The notes under the pieces: generated by a model
Database searches by the model: none
What the model saw: only the letters and a program-made list of their open reading frames with translations
Told to the model about the DNA's origin: nothing
In this document: positions 8,298 through 15,440 of the stretch, one piece after another
Numbering within the stretch: the stretch's first letter is position 1
Layout: the number at the start of each line of letters is the position of its first letter
Position numbers and translations under genes: made by a program
Assembly: GCA_034113565.1 (NCBI GenBank)
Contig: JAXEXE010000031.1
Location: 14,885 to 78,884, forward strand
DNA length: 64,000 nucleotides
Direction: 5' to 3'
Origin: Faecousia sp.
GTDB lineage: Bacteria > Bacillota > Clostridia > Oscillospirales > Oscillospiraceae

Positions 8298-9257
8298 ATG
8301 AAGATCATTCGCAACCTACTCACCCTGACGCTGGCACTGGTGCTGGCGGCAGGCTGTATTCCCCTTTCCGCATCCGCTGCCGACAACCTGATGTACGGCA
8401 TTGGATTTGTAAACGCCACCTCATTAAGGCTTCGCAGCAGCGCCGCGACTACGGCGTCCACGCTGGATACCGCTGTTCGCGGCGAATGCGTTGCCGTCAT
8501 CGCCAGGGAGGGCGACTGGTACAAAGTGAATTATAACCTTCAGGAAGGCTATATGCACAAAGACTACCTGTCTGTCAGCACCAGGGAAAATGCCGAGCTG
8601 GGCTATGGAAAAATACGCGGCACCGGCGTAAATCTGCGCACCGGCCCGGCCACCTCCCACCCTGTCGCCGCTGTTTCCGGCAGCGAAGACCAGTGCTATA
8701 TTGTGGGGATCAACGAGGGCTGGTACAAGGTTCTGTTTAAAGAAAAAGTCTGCTACATACGCAGCGACTTTGTGGAGCTGACGGAAATTCCCTATGAAAA
8801 CCCGGATTCTCCAAATTCTCCCAAGTATTATCGGGGCGGTAAATCCATTGGGACTATCCTCGGCAGTTCTGCCAGCGCAACCCCGGTCAGCGTCACCGGC
8901 AGTCAGATTCTGGAAGAAGCACAGAAGTATCTCGGCTGTCCCTACCGGGCAGGCGGCGCTTCCCCCAGCGGTTTCGACTGCTCCGGATTTGTTTACTATG
9001 TGCTCAAGCAGTTGGGTCTGTCCCCTTACCGTACGCCCGTCGAGCAGTACAAAATGGGAACCTCCGTGGAAAAGTCCGCATTGCAAATGGGCGATCTGGT
9101 TTTCTTCGGTTCCGGCAGCATCACCCATGCGGGTATCTACGCCGGCGGCGGACAGTTCATCCACGCCCCGAACTCCCGTTCCACCGTTTCTTACTCCGAT
9201 CTCACCAGCGGCTACTGGGCGGAGCACTACTTCGGTGCCTGCCGGGTCGCGCAATAA
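8298..9257 (+). CDS. Secreted SH3b-SH3b-NlpC/P60 peptidoglycan endopeptidase
   Basis: Signal peptide, two SH3b-like repeats (VNATSLRLR, TGVNLRTGP), NlpC/P60 motifs GFDCSG and ITHAGIY. Confidence 0.9.
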   Translation: MKIIRNLLTLTLALVLAAGCIPLSASAADNLMYGIGFVNATSLRLRSSAATTASTLDTAVRGECVAVIAREGDWYKVNYNLQEGYMHKDYLSVSTRENAELGYGKIRGTGVNLRTGPATSHPVAAVSGSEDQCYIVGINEGWYKVLFKEKVCYIRSDFVELTEIPYENPDSPNSPKYYRGGKSIGTILGSSASATPVSVTGSQILEEAQKYLGCPYRAGGASPSGFDCSGFVYYVLKQLGLSPYRTPVEQYKMGTSVEKSALQMGDLVFFGSGSITHAGIYAGGGQFIHAPNSRSTVSYSDLTSGYWAEHYFGACRVAQ

Positions 9258-9312: not shown

Positions 9313-9756
9313 TTACCTCTGCATCCACAGCAGACGTTGGGTGGTGCCCTCTTCGTATTTCCAGATGCCGCTTTTATGAAAGTCATGGCGCTCATAAAAA
9401 GCGATGGCACGGGGATTGCTTTCCAGCACCCATAAATTCTTGACGGAAAAACGTTTCACAGCAAAGTCCAGAAGTGTTCCTCCGATGCCCTGTCCGGCGA
9501 AAAAGGAGTCCACGTACAGCTGAACCACTTCCTGCCCCCGAATGCGGATCATTCCCTTCACAAAATCCTCCTCATAGACCCAGATCTCCCTCAACTCCCC
9601 GGGATTTTGCTGCAATTCACCAGCAACCGTCATGACCTGTAGTTCTCCAAAGGAATACCGGTCATTGTGAAAAATCCTGCGGTAATTCACCCGCTTGGTA
9701 AAAACCAGAATTTCCGCAATCCGGGAAATATCCCCGGTCTCCGCCTGCCTGATCAT
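9313..9756 (-). CDS. GNAT family N-acetyltransferase
   Basis: LYVDSFFAGQGIGGTLL (motif A) and LWVLESNPRAIAFYERHDF. Confidence 0.85.
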   Translation of the reverse strand: MIRQAETGDISRIAEILVFTKRVNYRRIFHNDRYSFGELQVMTVAGELQQNPGELREIWVYEEDFVKGMIRIRGQEVVQLYVDSFFAGQGIGGTLLDFAVKRFSVKNLWVLESNPRAIAFYERHDFHKSGIWKYEEGTTQRLLWMQR

Positions 9757-9759
9757 TTT

Positions 9760-10257
9760 CTATTTCTCCCATTCCAGATAATCGTACGCAATTCTCGGGG
9801 AGCCATCCGCAATATAGATGATTCCGCGGCGCTGAAAGCCCAGCTTTTTGACCGCGCCCTGCATCACATGGTTATCCTCGTGGGTATCGATCCGCAGATG
9901 ACCGATTTTTCCTGTCGCAAAGGCGACAGCCGTTTTCAGAATCCCTCCGGAACCGTCTCCCGCAATGCGATGGATGGTACCGTATGGCGTATCCGAGCGC
10001 CAAGCGCCGCCGTCGACTCGTTGGTAGGTTGGGTCTTCTCCCACCCAGAAGAAGAAAACACCGTGTATGCTCTCCCCGTCAGATATGACAAACAGCCGGT
10101 TTTGCGCAATGTCCTGCCGAAGCTGCGCCGTGGGCGGATTGGTTTTGCCCCACTGATTTGGATTTCCGTTTTTTTCCATGAAATCTCTGGCATAGCTGTA
10201 AATTTCCTCAATTCTCCCCAAATCCGACAGCTTTGCCGGACGAACCGTATAATTCAT
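9760..10257 (-). CDS. GNAT family N-acetyltransferase
   Basis: TIHRIAG..G.G and LRIDTHEDNHVMQ..VKKLGF. Start placed at MNYTVR. Confidence 0.82.
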   Translation of the reverse strand: MNYTVRPAKLSDLGRIEEIYSYARDFMEKNGNPNQWGKTNPPTAQLRQDIAQNRLFVISDGESIHGVFFFWVGEDPTYQRVDGGAWRSDTPYGTIHRIAGDGSGGILKTAVAFATGKIGHLRIDTHEDNHVMQGAVKKLGFQRRGIIYIADGSPRIAYDYLEWEK

Positions 10258-10292
10258 AAATCTTCCCCCTTTCTTTCGATTATACATCATTT

Positions 10293-10322
10293 GAATGGTT
10301 CACGCAAGAACCGCGCATACTA
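10293..10322 (+). promoter_or_regulatory. SigG-type forespore promoter of spoVAD-spoVAE
   Basis: GAATG-N18-CATACTA matches the SigG consensus GNATR-N18-CATNNTA. spoVA is SigG-dependent in Bacillus and Clostridium. Confidence 0.75.
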
Positions 10323-10350: not shown

Positions 10351-11367
10351 ATGGCAAGTCAAAAACGGGGGCGGCAGAGCTTCGTGCTGGCCCAGCCGCC
10401 GGTCATTACCACATGGGCCAATGTCGCCGGAAAAAAAGAAGTGGAAGGGCCGCTGTCCCATACCTTCGATGTTAAGTGCCGGGATACCTATTTTGGGCAG
10501 AAAACCTGGGAGCAGGCAGAAAAACAGATGCAGCAGCTGGCTCTGCGGAAGCTGGCGGAAAAAGCGGGAATGACCATGTCGGATTTTGACGTGGTCTTCT
10601 CCGGCGACCTGCTGAACCAGTGTATCGGCTCCTCCTTTACCCTGCGAAACACCGGGGTTCCCCATTTGGGACTGTACGGCGCCTGCTCCACCATGGCGGA
10701 AAGTCTGCTTTTGGCCTCCATGACAGTGGGCGGTGGGTTTGCGGATACGGTGGTTGCCATGACCTCCTCTCATTTTGCGTCCTCGGAACGGCAGTACCGT
10801 TTCCCGCTGGGCTATGGCGGGCAGCGGACACCCACCTCACAGTGGACTGTCACCGGTTCAGGAGCCGCATTGGTACGCTCTCAGGGCAAAGGGCCAAAAA
10901 TCACCGCCTGCACCATCGGCACCGTCACCGATTTAGGAATCAAGGATGCCAACAACATGGGCGCAGCCATGGCCCCTGCGGCGCTGGCGACCATCAAGGC
11001 CCATTTTGCCGACCTGAATACCGGGCCCGAGGACTTTGACCGGATCGTCACCGGTGATTTGGGCCAGCTGGGTATGGAAATGCTGCTGGAGCTGGCCCGG
11101 CTGGACGGGCTGTCCCTTGGGGGCAAGCTCATGGACTGCGGCACCACTGTGTTTGACAACACCTCGCAGGATGTCCACGCCGGCGGCTCCGGCTGCGGGT
11201 GCAGTGCCATCACCCTGTGCGGGTATCTTCTGGACCAGCTGAACACCGGGAAGCTGAAAAAAATCCTGTTCTGCGGCACCGGGGCACTGCTGTCCCCCAC
11301 CTCCACCCAGCAGGGACTTCCCATTCCCGGCGTATGTCACGCAGTCAGCATTACAGGAGGGCGGTAA
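10351..11367 (+). CDS. spoVAD: Stage V sporulation protein AD (DPA uptake)
   Basis: GDLLNQC, GLYGACSTMAESL, SSHFASSERQYRFPLGYG, GGSGCGCS. Confidence 0.95.
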   Translation: MASQKRGRQSFVLAQPPVITTWANVAGKKEVEGPLSHTFDVKCRDTYFGQKTWEQAEKQMQQLALRKLAEKAGMTMSDFDVVFSGDLLNQCIGSSFTLRNTGVPHLGLYGACSTMAESLLLASMTVGGGFADTVVAMTSSHFASSERQYRFPLGYGGQRTPTSQWTVTGSGAALVRSQGKGPKITACTIGTVTDLGIKDANNMGAAMAPAALATIKAHFADLNTGPEDFDRIVTGDLGQLGMEMLLELARLDGLSLGGKLMDCGTTVFDNTSQDVHAGGSGCGCSAITLCGYLLDQLNTGKLKKILFCGTGALLSPTSTQQGLPIPGVCHAVSITGGR

Positions 11368-11368
11368 T

Positions 11369-11725
11369 ATGGACTATGTCAAGGCATTTCTGGTGGGCGG
11401 CGCGCTGTGCCTCATCGGACAGATTCTGATTGACAAAACCAAGCTGACGCCGGCTCGAATTCTGGTGAGCTATGTGATCGCCGGTGTCCTTTTAGGGGCA
11501 GTCGGATTATACCCGAAGCTCATTGAATTCGCCGGAGCGGGCGCATCCGTGCCTTTGACAGGCTTCGGCAGTCTTCTGGCCAAAGGAGTTAAGGAAGCTG
11601 TAATGAAGGACGGATTTCTGGGCATTTTCACCGGCGGACTGAAGGCCGCTGCCGGCGGCATTACCGCCGCGATTATCGCGGGACTTGTGGCAAGCTTCCT
11701 GTTTAAAGCAAGGGATAAATCCTGA
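11369..11725 (+). CDS. spoVAE: Stage V sporulation protein AE (SpoVAEb type)
   Basis: MDYVKAFLVGGALCLIGQILIDKTKLTPARILV and FAGAGASVPLTGFG. Confidence 0.88.
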   Translation: MDYVKAFLVGGALCLIGQILIDKTKLTPARILVSYVIAGVLLGAVGLYPKLIEFAGAGASVPLTGFGSLLAKGVKEAVMKDGFLGIFTGGLKAAAGGITAAIIAGLVASFLFKARDKS

Positions 11726-11784
11726 AAAACAGGTTATCCTAGGTAGGCGGCTATGCCGCCAGATCGTTTTGGGAGGAACAAAGC

Positions 11785-11895
11785 ATGAACAACCAGAATA
11801 AGAATCAGAACCAGAATAACAACAACCAGAATCAGAACAACAATCAGAACCAGAACAGCAACCAGAATCAGAACCAGAACAGAAACAGCCGCTGA
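11785..11895 (+). CDS. Unannotated 36-aa Asn/Gln-rich peptide (MNNQNKNQNQNNNNQNQNNNQNQNSNQNQNQNRNSR)
   Basis: RBS GGGAGG at 11771-11776, 8 nt before the ATG. Repeat variation falls mostly at synonymous positions (AAC/AAT). A terminator follows. Confidence 0.65.
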   Translation: MNNQNKNQNQNNNNQNQNNNQNQNSNQNQNQNRNSR

Positions 11896-11900
11896 CGGCA

Positions 11901-11930
11901 ATGTGGGCCACCGTATCCGGTGACCCACAT
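11901..11930. terminator. Terminator between the N/Q peptide and addA
   Basis: atgtgggccaccg-tatc-cggtgacccacat hairpin with one mismatch. Confidence 0.7.
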
Positions 11931-11933
11931 CCT

Positions 11934-14900
11934 TTATAGTTCAATGAAAGCATCCAGACTGAAAAAGTACAGCATTTTCCGTTTTACGGGCATTTCATAG
12001 ATTCGGCACAGAGCATCCGCGTAGGTCTGCACCTGTAGGCGGTAGCGGTCGGCAGCTGCGCTGACGGTCTCTTCCGTCACCCGGTCGGTTTTGAAATCAA
12101 TCACGGTGATTCCGTCCGGCTCCAGAAGCGCGCAGTCCACAACGCCCTGCAAAAGCACCTGCTCCCCTTCCAGCCCTTCGCCGTAATGTCTGCCGTCGTC
12201 CAAAATTGAAAATTTGAACTCCCGCAGGCAGGGCGCGCCGTAGCGCAGCTTTCTTCCGGGCTCCGTCTGGAAAAAGCGGGCCAGCTTTTCTGTATTTACC
12301 AGCATTCCCTGCTCCCGGGTCAGGAATCCTTCCGTGGCCAGCCGCTGAATTTCCGCTGCTGCCGCCTGAACATCCCCGCAGTTTTCATATTTCAGGTATT
12401 GCAGGGCCGCGTGCATGGCGCTGCCGTAGCTTTTTCCTTCTGCCTGCGCGGTCAAGAATTCCGGCTGACGCCAGTTTCGTTCCGGTTTTTTGGGTGGCTC
12501 CGCGTTTTCCGCCGCTTCCGCGTCCTTGGCACGGCCCTTCCGTCCGGTGGCTGTCTGCTTGGACGGTGTACAGGTTGCCGGAATGTGGGCATACCGGAAG
12601 GCCAGGGAACGGCGCAGCTGTGTCTCCAACTCTGGGGGCAGTGTGGGTGTCTCCTCCTCAGCAGCAGCGGCGGTTTGCGTCTGCCCCTGAACCGCCGGGG
12701 TTTCAATCCGCCAGGGATGGTCGGTCAGAATGGTTTCTGCCGGTCTGCCGCCCAAAGCGTGCAGGGCGCCCGCTTCCCCCCTGCCCACCGCCGCAAGGAG
12801 CACCCAGTCGCCCATGCAGGTGGCGTCCTGTCCCAGCAGCCGCCCGCCGTCAAAGTCACAGCGCTGGGCGATCTCCTTCAGGTCTGAGGGGAGGGTCTGA
12901 GAGGCATAGGTCATCACAAGCCGGTCCTTTGCCCGGGTCATGGCAACGTACAGCACCCGCATCTCCTCGGAAACACTCTCCGATGCCATTTTCACCGCAA
13001 CGGCCCGCTTGGCAAGAGACGGATAGCGAACGCGGTTTTCCGTATCCGCGCTGGACAGGCCCAATCCCAGCGTTCTGTCGCAGAGAATCTGGGCCCGCAG
13101 GTCCTCCTGATTGAACCGTCGGGACAGATTGCACAGAAACACCACCGGGAATTCCAATCCCTTGGACTTGTGGATGCTCATAATATTCACGCAGTCCGTT
13201 CCGGCAGCACCCGGGGCAACCAGGCCCCGCTCCTCCATCCTGTCCAGCTGCTCTAGAAACTGGGAAAGCTCCCGCATGGTTCCCTTTTCAAAATCACAGG
13301 CGTATTGGTAAAAGGTCTGAATGTTCGCTGTTTTCGCTTCGCCGCCGGGCATGGCTGCAAAAATACTGTCCATGCGGGTCAGCAGCAGACATTTCTCCAT
13401 CAGCCCGGTCAGGGTGCTGCGTTTTGCCTCAGAGCGGAGGGTATTCAGCGTCAGGAGAAACGCTTCTGCCTTTGGGTGTCCGCTGGACACAAGGGCGTCA
13501 TAGAAGGCGCCTTTTTTCTGCTTCGCCCGGACTTGGGCCAAGTCCTCCGCCGTGAAGCCAAATACCGGGCATGCCAGCACGCTGAGCAGAGGAATATCCT
13601 GCCGGGGGTTCATTACCGTTTGCAGCAGGCTGCGGAAGGTGCCGATTTCCTGAGTTTGCAGCAGGTCCGTGCCGCCTCCGGTGGAGCAATGGATGCCAAG
13701 TCCCTCCAGCGCCCGCTGGAAGTTTCCCCCGGCGCTGCCGGGAGACCGGAGCAAAATCACAATGTCTCCGGGCTTTACCGGACGCAGCGTGTCCCCGTCC
13801 CGAACCAGTGTGCCGGAAGTCAGCATATCACGGATTCTTTCGGCAACAAAGGCCGCTTCCTCCGCGTAAGTATCCGTCACGGTTTCCAGCGCGTACAGCT
13901 CTACGCCGGGGTCCGGCAGTGGGATGTGGGGCACGCCCTCCCGGAGGGCTTCCGCGTCCGTATAGTAGAGTCCTCCGACTTTCGGGGTCATACAGGTGGT
14001 AAACACATGATTGACGCCTTCGATCACCTCCGCACCGGAACGGAAATTATGGCTGAGCAGCACCTTTCGGCCCTGCACCGGCTGGGCGTCTTCGGCGGGT
14101 GCGTAGGCTTCGTACTTTTCAAGGAAAATCCCCGGGTCTGCCAGCCGAAACTGATAGATGGACTGCTTTACATCGCCTACCAGAAAACAGTTCTGCTTTT
14201 CCCGGCTCAGCGCGGTAAAGATTGCGTCCTGCACGCCGTTGGAATCCTGATACTCGTCCACCAATATTTCTCTGTATCTGCCGCCGATTTCCGCCGCAGC
14301 GGCAGTGGGATTGGTTCGGGATTTGCCCAGCAGCAGGTCCAGCGTGTTGTGCTCCAGATCGCTGAAATCCAGAATCCGGCGGCTTCGCTTGGCGGCGCGG
14401 TAATCCCGGTCGAACTGCTCCACAAGCTTGGCAAGTCCCCGCGCGCCGGAGGCCGACTGGGTCAAATCTACGAGCACCTGTGCAGATTCGTCAGAGAAAT
14501 TTTTCAGTTTTCGTTCCAGTCCGGTCTTGCAGCCTTTCCGGGCTGCTTTGACACGGTCTGCCAGATCCTGATCCACATTTTTCTTGGGAAATACCAGCCT
14601 TCCGTAATCAATGACGCGGTTTTTGACAATTCCGTCCCAAGTTTCCTCCGCCCGCAGAGCCTGAAGCTGGTACAGGGTGTCCCGCAGGTTGACGGCTGCC
14701 TTCTCCATCCCTTCGCTGGCAGAAAGCTGAATGGCGCATTGCTCGATTACATGAATCTGACAGTCCAGATAGTCGTGGAGGTCATCGATCAAAAACTGAC
14801 CCCAAATGGTTTCCGAAGCATCGGTAACGTCCTGCGCGTCCAGCAGGGTCAGGCAGGTATCCAGCCACTGCTTCGGGTTCAGGTGGCATCTGGCGCTGTC

Positions 14901-15440
14901 GTAGACCTTTTCAATGATCTGGGGCACCAGACGGTCATCCCTGCCCAGTCCCTGCGTATCCACAAAGGCCCGGAAATCCGGGTCATCTTCACTCGCATAG
15001 GCCTTGTCCAATAAATCCGTGAGTACCTGCTCCCGGATTTCCCGGCATTCATTGTCGTCCGCCACCCGAAAATCCGCCGGAATATCCAATCGGTAGGCGT
15101 ATTCCCGGAGGATATCCCCGCAAAATCCGTGAACAGTGGAGATTTTTGCCAGAAACAGCCGCTGCATCTGCTTTTGCAAATGCTTATTTTCCGGCTCCTC
15201 CGCAATGCGCTGGCTCAGCTTCGCCGCGATTTTCCCCCGAAGCTCCGCCGCTGCCGCTTTGGTATAGGTAATGATCAGAAAGTCATCCAGATTGGCAGGA
15301 TCGTGCTCATCCGTAAGATAGGCCATCAGCCTGTCAACCAGCACCTTGGTTTTCCCGGAGCCGGCGGCAGCGGAAACCAGCAGCTTCCCGCCCCGGTTAT
15401 GTACTGCCTGCTCCTGCTGGGGCGTCAGCTTATCTGCCAT
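11934..15440 (-). CDS. addA: AddAB helicase/nuclease subunit A
   Basis: VSAAAGSGKT, TYTKAAA, VDEYQD, VGDVKQSIYQFR, SIHKSKGLEF, RVLYVAMTRA, C-terminal nuclease GVVD..IDFKT. Confidence 0.95.
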   Translation of the reverse strand: MADKLTPQQEQAVHNRGGKLLVSAAAGSGKTKVLVDRLMAYLTDEHDPANLDDFLIITYTKAAAAELRGKIAAKLSQRIAEEPENKHLQKQMQRLFLAKISTVHGFCGDILREYAYRLDIPADFRVADDNECREIREQVLTDLLDKAYASEDDPDFRAFVDTQGLGRDDRLVPQIIEKVYDSARCHLNPKQWLDTCLTLLDAQDVTDASETIWGQFLIDDLHDYLDCQIHVIEQCAIQLSASEGMEKAAVNLRDTLYQLQALRAEETWDGIVKNRVIDYGRLVFPKKNVDQDLADRVKAARKGCKTGLERKLKNFSDESAQVLVDLTQSASGARGLAKLVEQFDRDYRAAKRSRRILDFSDLEHNTLDLLLGKSRTNPTAAAAEIGGRYREILVDEYQDSNGVQDAIFTALSREKQNCFLVGDVKQSIYQFRLADPGIFLEKYEAYAPAEDAQPVQGRKVLLSHNFRSGAEVIEGVNHVFTTCMTPKVGGLYYTDAEALREGVPHIPLPDPGVELYALETVTDTYAEEAAFVAERIRDMLTSGTLVRDGDTLRPVKPGDIVILLRSPGSAGGNFQRALEGLGIHCSTGGGTDLLQTQEIGTFRSLLQTVMNPRQDIPLLSVLACPVFGFTAEDLAQVRAKQKKGAFYDALVSSGHPKAEAFLLTLNTLRSEAKRSTLTGLMEKCLLLTRMDSIFAAMPGGEAKTANIQTFYQYACDFEKGTMRELSQFLEQLDRMEERGLVAPGAAGTDCVNIMSIHKSKGLEFPVVFLCNLSRRFNQEDLRAQILCDRTLGLGLSSADTENRVRYPSLAKRAVAVKMASESVSEEMRVLYVAMTRAKDRLVMTYASQTLPSDLKEIAQRCDFDGGRLLGQDATCMGDWVLLAAVGRGEAGALHALGGRPAETILTDHPWRIETPAVQGQTQTAAAAEEETPTLPPELETQLRRSLAFRYAHIPATCTPSKQTATGRKGRAKDAEAAENAEPPKKPERNWRQPEFLTAQAEGKSYGSAMHAALQYLKYENCGDVQAAAAEIQRLATEGFLTREQGMLVNTEKLARFFQTEPGRKLRYGAPCLREFKFSILDDGRHYGEGLEGEQVLLQGVVDCALLEPDGITVIDFKTDRVTEETVSAAADRYRLQVQTYADALCRIYEMPVKRKMLYFFSLDAFIEL

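Follow-up and report, generated by a model that had tools for sequence, protein, structure and literature searches.

Downstream of the sporulation gene spoVAE of a Faecousia species (Oscillospiraceae) from the pig gut lies a short, repetitive stretch of DNA that raises the question of whether it is a neutral repeat or a gene and, if a gene, what its product could do in the spore. The stretch is part of a 64,000-nucleotide segment (the window; positions 14,885 to 78,884 of contig JAXEXE010000031.1, here numbered from its first letter) of a metagenome-assembled genome (MAG) of 3.03 Mb, 55.6% GC and 97.9% completeness. It contains a small open reading frame (sORF) of 36 codons on the plus strand (11785-11895, ATG to TGA), which encodes MNNQNKNQNQNNNNQNQNNNQNQNSNQNQNQNRNSR, a peptide with 20 Asn, 10 Gln, 2 Ser, 2 Arg and 1 Lys among its 36 residues, 30 of which (83%) are thus N or Q. 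A ribosome-binding site (RBS), GGGAGG, is found at 11771-11776 on the same strand, 8 nt 5' of the ATG. The original prediction, which was made from the DNA alone, had claimed both the N/Q-rich peptide and its strong RBS, and both were found as described; it had also proposed an undescribed gene with forespore-type signals, too short for standard gene callers, a view that the comparative evidence presented here backs, the gene being missed by gene callers and family libraries alike. As judged from orthologous sequences, the sORF is a real, unannotated protein-coding gene and not a neutral repeat. With moderate confidence, it is best explained as a forespore gene for a bulk-acting protein of the spore core that resembles the small acid-soluble spore proteins (SASPs).

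Asn is encoded by AAC (14) or AAT (6) and Gln by CAG only (10; CAA, 0), and the variation between repeat units consists mostly of C/T changes, being largely synonymous as had been noted at the outset. The N/Q-rich stretch is unique in its genome. When all six frames of the 3.03 Mb were scanned for segments of 20 residues containing at least 11 N+Q, strong enrichment was found only at the sORF, the five further matches being weak and lying within ordinary sequence (the genome-wide codon share is 3.7% for Asn and 4.8% for Gln).

Constraint on the reading frame in orthologous loci

Protein searches fail on a low-complexity query of 36 residues and, therefore, orthologues were sought by position, by taking SpoVAE as the anchor and reading the DNA 3' of the spoVAE stop, as well as with degenerate DNA patterns. 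A small hydrophilic ORF was found 50-62 nt after spoVAE in all 24 same-genus genomes of a first set and in 6 of 6 of a second. Among named records (MAGs and isolates), the 80 closest spoVAE loci include 52 with an N/Q sORF counterpart, one being that of Pseudoflavonifractor sp. MSJ-30 (L081), an isolate in culture. In other genera, e.g. Oscillibacter, Sporobacter, Limivicinus, a Ruminococcus sp. and Anaerotignum, the sORF is absent downstream of spoVAE. Removal of duplicates left 74 distinct loci, with products of 25-60 residues (median, 39), to which the values given below refer. In the closest relative (L031; SpoVAE 92% identical), the sORF differs in length and the 59-nt leader is almost unchanged. 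Despite large length changes, the orthologous loci retain the ATG, the RBS and the frame, the features whose loss the original prediction had named as grounds for its rejection. GGAGG is found in at least 59 of the 74 loci and its spacing to the ATG is 7-10 nt in 69 of them; the usual N-terminus is MNNQN[KQR], the C-terminal residue is Arg in 65 loci and Lys in 6, and the net charge is +2 to +4 in 72, independent of length.

Pairwise ratios of non-synonymous to synonymous substitution (dN/dS) were uninformative, L033/L035 being the sole close pair of equal length, and phase-specific composition was used instead. Pooled over the 74 loci without Met1, the peptides contain 47% N and 31% Q (78% overall), 10% K+R, 5% S, 1.8% E and 1.7% T, while Leu, Val, Pro and Trp are never found among the 2852 residues, and Phe, Ile and Ala are essentially missing. 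Polar single-nucleotide neighbours of the AAY and CAR codons are frequent (Lys, 143; Ser-AGY, 128; Glu, 52; Thr, 49) and Arg is also common, whereas non-polar or stop neighbours are rare or nil (Ile, 5; Leu, 0; Pro, 0; stop, 0); Lys, Ser, Thr, Arg and Glu are as reachable by mutation as the missing hydrophobic residues. The share of T is 1.9, 0.4 and 16.5% at codon positions 1, 2 and 3, respectively, stops break the other two sense frames in 64 and 63 loci, and indels between orthologous loci are always in frame.

These observations bear on the possibility that the sORF is an accidental frame in a neutral hexanucleotide microsatellite, (AACCAG)n. A repeat is indeed detectable, Tandem Repeats Finder reporting imperfect 6-, 12- and 18-nt periods with 69-78% matches, and its length is highly variable between species. 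However, a microsatellite accounts neither for a single locus that in 30 of 30 genomes of the genus comes with promoter, hairpin, RBS, ATG, in-frame stop and basic C-terminus, nor for the phase-specific composition, the avoidance of hydrophobic codons and internal stops, and the lack of a second such repeat in the genome. A neutral origin is, thus, extremely improbable, and the preference for selection at the protein level expressed in the original prediction is borne out. It is also hardly credible that the gene lies on the opposite strand, where ORF 11734-11928 (minus strand) would encode a 64-residue Leu/Val/Ile-rich membrane peptide resembling a type I toxin. This frame is open in the window and the reverse complement of the N/Q codons (CTG GTT) reads Leu-Val, but such frames are open by construction; in 25 of the 74 orthologues no start codon precedes the repeat, an RBS-like motif is found in only 6, and no promoter or terminator is conserved on the minus strand, whereas the sense-strand signals all are. 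Both the microsatellite and the antisense toxin were rejected as contradicted by these results.

The unit could also be a functional RNA, either derived from the spoVA 3' untranslated region or independent, that interacts through its CAGAAC-type repeats with a protein or a second RNA, the ORF being incidental or weakly translated. The shortness of the unit, its conserved 5' and 3' hairpins, and an A/C-rich repeat that is predicted to be unstructured would suit such a molecule. It would not call for a conserved ATG with a near-consensus RBS at optimal spacing, for T to be almost confined to codon position 3, for an N/Q frame that is always open while the others carry stops, or for in-frame indels; nor would it maintain the amino acid class, with a bias for AAC and CAG, across loci of 36-59% GC. 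A role of the RNA as such is, therefore, very unlikely.

The residue sequence itself evolves fast, with selection acting on composition, charge and termini as in disordered proteins. AlphaFold2 yields a model of the window peptide with a predicted local distance difference test score (pLDDT) of 59, a predicted template modelling score (pTM) of 0.13 and no secondary structure, which agrees with what is expected of a disordered protein conserved in composition only. The peptide has a mass of 4.3 kDa, an isoelectric point of approximately 12, a grand average of hydropathy of −3.27 and 2.03 N atoms per residue. In the positional orthologues L002, L033, L038, L072 and L225, the sequence has drifted to a T/K/E/G-rich one that is still hydrophilic and basic.

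Promoter, leader and genomic setting

A forespore (sigma-F/sigma-G-type) motif is present where the original prediction had placed it (11713-11741), with the −35-like element GGATA at 11713-11717 (plus strand), inside the last codons of spoVAE, and the −10-like element GGTTATCCTA at 11732-11741 (plus strand), 14 nt further on. The arrangement is conserved, a spacer of exactly 14 nt separating GGATA from the GG of the 10-mer GGGCAWRCTA, the genus consensus, in 69 of the 74 loci. Within the −10 element, little or no variation is found at G1, G2, A5, T9 and A10, and 63 loci have C8. With reference to the Bacillus subtilis consensus, the reading GNATA-N17-CATACTA is of the sigma-G type, and with the GG the motif also fits the sigma-F type. 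As the −35 element in most loci overlaps the end of the spoVAE frame (K-D-K-S-stop), its conservation alone could reflect coding. In L060, L093 and L227-L229, the promoter is displaced from spoVAE by the insertion of 11-20 nt, and GGATA, GCATA, GAATG or GAATA is found in intergenic DNA, 14-15 nt from the −10 element (15 in L093).

The −10 element of the sORF resembles those of the organism's own alpha/beta-type SASP gene, the promoter of which reads GGATT-N14-GGAAAAGCTA, and of spoVAD (GCGCATACTA), so that the motif is of the type that this organism uses for classical forespore genes. In B. subtilis, spoVAD is sigma-G-dependent. Direct reading of the window places a sigma-G-type promoter, GAATG (10293-10297)-N18-CATACTA (10316-10322), at 10293-10322 on the plus strand, approximately 30 nt before the spoVAD start, and read-through from it probably reaches the sORF as well. 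A sigma-70 scan near spoVAD flagged a different site, CCGACA-N18-TATAAT, at 10224-10253.

A short hairpin that the original prediction had not mentioned, GGCGGC-TAT-GCCGCC (11746-11760, plus strand), lies between the −10 element and the RBS. Downstream of the −10 element, 67 of the 74 loci versus 12% of shuffled sequences have a hairpin whose stem comprises 4 bp or more, including 3 or more GC pairs. The stems are of 4-9 bp and GC-rich, and in 41 of the 67 loci they begin 5 nt after the −10 element. Their inner pair varies in a compensatory fashion (C-G, T-A, A-T, G-C), and some entire stems are swapped (GGGG/CCCC, ACAGC/GCTGT). From the usual distance between a −10 element and the transcription start, the hairpin is predicted to form right at the 5' terminus of the sORF mRNA, and 5'-terminal hairpins are known to stabilise transcripts in Firmicutes. 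Its interpretation as a general spoVAE terminator was considered since it was flagged as terminator-like in the window, but it was discarded because a T tract is missing after it in most of the orthologues. The −35 and −10 elements of the window also complement each other and could pair in a hairpin spanning 11713-11739 (−12.7 kcal/mol). This, too, was rejected as a feature because the complementarity is found only in the window and in L031, most orthologues being of the GGGCA type without it, and it is probably coincidental.

A terminator-like hairpin (11901-11930, plus strand; RNAfold, −20.4 kcal/mol) follows the sORF and is common to it and to the convergent addA (11934-15440, minus strand; TIGR02785, 6e-239), from whose stop it is separated by 3 nt. 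The claim that the sORF has its own terminator thus holds for the hairpin 3' of the stop, but the U tract that follows is weak (CCUUUAU), which is why a terminator scan missed the structure. The orthologues and the unrelated members of the class described below mostly have a clear hairpin-plus-T-run terminator directly after the stop. A ribosomal leader peptide or attenuator was excluded since the terminator hairpin and the convergent addA directly follow the sORF, the members of the class elsewhere being terminator-followed as well. A precursor of a ribosomally synthesised and post-translationally modified peptide was likewise rejected, as a Pfam scan revealed no modifying enzymes nearby.

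Upstream of the sORF, spoVAD (10351-11367, plus strand; Pfam SpoVAD, 4e-139) and spoVAE (11369-11725, plus strand, stop at 11723-11725; Pfam SpoVAC_SpoVAEB, 1.9e-36, and NCBIfam spore_V_AE above cut-off) form in Faecousia a two-gene unit, a spoVAC-like paralogue being found on another contig (G000:C182:12139-12480). In out-group genomes such as G033, spoVAC is still beside spoVAD-spoVAE. Two adjacent genes for GNAT-type acetyltransferases (9313-10290, minus strand) are divergent from spoVAD and lie upstream of it, and a gene for an NlpC/P60-SH3 cell-wall hydrolase is found at 8298-9257.

Known spore proteins and a wider class of small ORFs in Clostridia

Neither the window peptide nor 13 relatives match Pfam-A or NCBIfam, even at E values up to 10, and none of 21 peptides was found by exact look-up in a collection of 15 billion proteins. 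A profile search of 5.8 billion clusters, in which 8000 candidates were scored, gave none at E ≤ 0.01, and literature searches returned nothing relevant, NQNQNQNQ matching a paper on kiwifruit only.

The product of the sORF invites comparison with the gamma-type SASP SspE of Bacillales, to which the original prediction had related it. Like SspE, it is small, hydrophilic, of low complexity, variable, and rich in Gln and Asn, and the promoter motif suggests a monocistronic gene with expression in the forespore. SspE is a proposed amino-acid reserve, needs no fold and varies greatly between species. Unlike SspE, the peptide is strongly basic, has 36 residues versus approximately 60-100, and lacks both similarity in sequence or in hidden Markov model searches and a site for the protease GPR; its N+Q content is 83% versus roughly 40% in SspE of B. 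subtilis. The GPR cleavage motif of gamma-type SASPs is of the E-[FIY]-[AG]-S-E type, and E[FIYL][AG]S[EQ] was found in 0 of the 74 orthologues. Kinship to SspE was, thus, not upheld, the peptide having neither a Pfam match nor a GPR-type site that would make it a member of the family. The accompanying statement that SspE is absent from Clostridia agrees with the literature, according to which no clostridial genome contains it (PMC3533761). Clostridial minor SASPs are barely known and a gamma-type storage SASP is said to be lacking (PMC3533761; bioRxiv 10.1101/2021.03.29.437554), so that a functional analogue of SspE would fill a known gap.

Other SASPs offer partial parallels. The minor SASPs of B. 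subtilis (SspG-SspP and Tlp) are hydrophilic, mostly basic proteins of approximately 35-70 residues, which are sigma-G/sigma-F-dependent, spore-specific, lineage-restricted and often monocistronic, with no known function (see PMC3533761). By size (under approximately 75 residues), hydrophilicity and an acid solubility expected from composition, the sORF peptide would operationally belong to this heterogeneous category. It differs in having no Pfam or NCBIfam homologues and in an unprecedented two-residue composition and a repeat-driven length variation that are not found in the minor SASPs. With the alpha/beta-type SASPs (PF00269) the peptide shares the promoter type, the small size and a probable abundance. 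These proteins, however, are conserved, helical and DNA-binding and contain GPR sites, while the sORF peptide has neither a PF00269 match nor predicted structure. The three loci of this genome that are detected with PF00269 do not include the sORF. Two contig ends (G000:C16:9961-10041 and G000:C69:31695-31766) carry the same truncated start of an alpha/beta-type SASP (MSNNSNNQLNIPEAREAMDRFKMQAAQDHG...) and probably represent a single gene that was split or duplicated in the assembly.

Small N/Q-rich ORFs were also found away from spoVAE. A strict N-terminal pattern, ATGRAYRAYCARAAYMRNAAY, was abandoned as too narrow, since it was found in 3 of 301 genomes of the family and missed even those of the same genus. 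It was replaced with the core pattern AAYCARAAYMRNAAYCARAAY (N-Q-N-x-N-Q-N), which detects the 74 known loci with a sensitivity of 76%. In the order, this pattern is present in 48 of 401 genomes, 37 of 177 genera and many families, versus approximately 8 genomes for the reversed control, and in the class it is found in 51 of 251 genomes versus approximately 9. These scans give lower bounds, and subsets of the matches were inspected. At the order level, 20 of 50 loci were ORFs of 29-74 residues, rich in N or N/Q, with an RBS and an intrinsic terminator and in varied contexts; at the class level, approximately 10 of 29 were of the same monocistronic type. In a phylum-wide sample, mostly outside the class, none of the 29 inspected pattern loci was an N/Q micro-ORF.

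The loci from outside Faecousia resemble that of the window in their control signals and composition. G-N-ATA N16-19 xAxxxTA is found 20-50 nt before the start in 15 of the first 20 of them, the background being 3.6% (binomial P = 2e-18); examples are GAATA-N17-CATAATA and GCATA-N17-CAAACTA. The products of 30 such members contain 52% N, 21% Q and 11.5% K+R, with a net charge mostly of +2 to +5, in loci of 36-59% GC. AAC accounts for 69% of their Asn codons and CAG for 81% of their Gln codons, versus 52% and 62%, respectively, in the flanking genes (paired Wilcoxon P = 0.002 each), the bias that would be expected of highly expressed genes. In L114, from another genus of the family, an sORF (MNNQNNNQNNIENKKNN...NRNDNQSR) is located between upp and nrdR; its promoter reads GAATA-N14-GAGCATACTG, the hairpin lies at an equal offset, and a terminator is present. 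From these comparisons, the sORF of the window would appear not to be peculiar to Faecousia but to belong to a widespread, unannotated class of N/Q forespore micro-proteins of 25-75 residues in Oscillospirales and other Clostridia, which could not be seen from the window alone.

Two observations on single loci deserve mention. L207 and L208 (G1281 and G1328; class-level scan) are ORFs of 56-57 residues, MSKNQNRNQNENR...TEFAQEVNPNNEQQKKKNNNK, with N/Q/K-rich arms and a central TEFAQEV. The latter is similar to the motif at which GPR cleaves SASPs, and the two ORFs may thus encode gamma-SASP-like proteins in Clostridia. In L134 and L135 (G357 and G530), CCTCCG in the leader can pair with CGGAGG, thereby sequestering the RBS, with a sigma-G-type −10 element, CATAATA, in the loop, an arrangement that may be a translational control element.

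The distribution of the class also bears on a specific role of the peptide in the SpoVA dipicolinate channel, as a plug, chaperone or regulator of SpoVAD/SpoVAE, which would explain its attachment to spoVAE. The sORF lies directly 3' of spoVAE in all 30 Faecousia genomes and in many relatives, with a promoter that reaches into the end of the spoVAE frame, and in most species no canonical terminator separates the two genes. On the other hand, N/Q micro-ORFs elsewhere stand alone with their own promoter and terminator, as between upp and nrdR in L114, no conserved motif for a specific partner is found, and pairwise evolution at the residue level is near neutral, all of which make an accessory of SpoVA unlikely. 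The association with spoVA suggested at first thus stands for Faecousia, in which the genes are adjacent, but it is not obligatory, as relatives in other genera and families are found in unrelated contexts.

Proposed role in the spore core

In the proposed scheme, transcription of the sORF in the forespore would be driven by a sigma-G/sigma-F-type promoter of its own that overlaps the end of spoVAE, with read-through from the spoVAD promoter probably adding to it. The mRNA would start at the small GC hairpin, carry a strong RBS and end at the hairpin common to addA, and the product would be an abundant, disordered, basic and extremely hydrophilic N/Q micro-protein of the spore core. It would act through its bulk properties, as an amide-nitrogen and amino-acid reserve for outgrowth, as a hydrophilic, charge-bearing matrix of the dehydrated core, or both, and would thus do what gamma-type SASP is proposed to do in Bacilli, but without homology to it. 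The forespore timing and compartment, the abundance, the location and the function of the peptide are what we infer from the features described above, codon bias, the strong RBS and the 5' hairpin being indirect hints of high expression. Among possible functions, one based on bulk properties is the most likely because selection maintains composition (amide-rich, non-hydrophobic, a charge of +2 to +4, a basic C-terminus) and not sequence. Nitrogen storage, which the original prediction had put forward beside amyloid or prion-like assembly, is a candidate role within this scheme.

The same properties could, alternatively, make the peptide an assembly-forming (polar-zipper, amyloid- or prion-like) or phase-separating element that helps set or lock the glassy core, the N/Q tract self-associating in the dehydrating forespore and dissolving on germination. 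N/Q-rich tracts form steric-zipper amyloids, and the peptide has the Q/N-rich low complexity typical of prion-like domains. In its extreme Q/N enrichment and paucity of charged and hydrophobic residues it resembles those of Sup35 (N domain) and Clostridium botulinum Rho. Its 83% N+Q with alternating N-Q runs, the absence of Pro and Gly breakers, the conservation of composition instead of sequence and the disordered AlphaFold2 monomer are all in keeping with assembly. However, prion-like domains usually have at least 60 residues, lie within larger proteins and contain Tyr and Gly, whereas the sORF product is a free peptide of 25-60 residues with basic ends and no aromatic residues, whose conserved positive charge should oppose aggregation. 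Furthermore, the drifted orthologues L002, L033, L038, L072 and L225 contain little N/Q, an argument for hydrophilicity and charge being more important than N/Q zippers. An assembly-forming function is, therefore, regarded as rather unlikely, and a real forespore gene for a SASP-like, bulk-acting protein of the spore core is, as said, the explanation favoured with moderate confidence.

Several points weigh against this interpretation. The promoter assignment is based on motifs, and the −10 element of the window, GGTTATCCTA, is among the weaker matches to the genus consensus. In the L033/L035 pair, 6 non-synonymous changes and 1 synonymous change yield non-synonymous and synonymous proportions (pN and pS) that are about equal, indicating constraint on composition only, which is also compatible with functions other than storage. 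A peptide of 36 residues would be a small reserve unless very abundant. GPR (Pfam PF03418), usually counted as a core sporulation gene, was not detected in the 97.9% complete genome, and of 24 Faecousia genomes of high quality only 4 yielded a match, despite the presence of alpha/beta-type SASP genes; with GPR mostly undetected and no GPR site in the peptide, mobilisation in the manner of gamma-type SASPs is not to be assumed. As for the wider group, its sequences are of such low complexity that homologues cannot be told from products of convergence, hence the term class.

The transcript data were not counted as evidence. The RNA runs consist of unstranded, assembled Logan contigs, and in some of them coverage is roughly flat across the neighbouring genes. 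In other runs, coverage is 2-4 times higher over the sORF, a value confounded by repeats from the sORFs of other species. In run X26, loose contig ends over 11808-11833 carry other variants of the N/Q sORF, e.g. ATGAACTTTAATCAGAATAACAAC (MNFNQNN...), so that the versions of several species in one sample inflate the depth over the repeat. A run that possibly stems from a single organism covers the region of the L216 sORF only, but its contig begins approximately 85 nt before the start site predicted there.

A bolder extension, which is possible but doubtful, is that the class as a whole comprises clostridial 'micro-SASPs', major components of the spore core that do the job of gamma-type SASP or something new. 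If so, the new role could be to form with Ca-dipicolinate and nucleic acids a reversible, amide-hydrogen-bonded gel or glass that would set the dormancy of the core and be dismantled at germination. These proteins would have been overlooked because they escape gene callers, profile searches and tryptic proteomics alike; from the window peptide, for instance, trypsin would release one N/Q peptide of 27 residues, of a kind that standard searches miss.

The case of the sORF points to a systematic blind spot, in that a gene present in every genome of the genus examined is without counterpart in Pfam, NCBIfam or, as far as the 21 peptides are concerned, the protein collection. SASPs account for much of the protein in spores, and both resistance and outgrowth depend on them. 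If confirmed, the N/Q micro-protein would, therefore, represent a missing, and probably abundant, component of the clostridial spore core, including that of the dominant and mostly uncultured Oscillospiraceae of the gut and of other Clostridia, whose transmission depends on spores.

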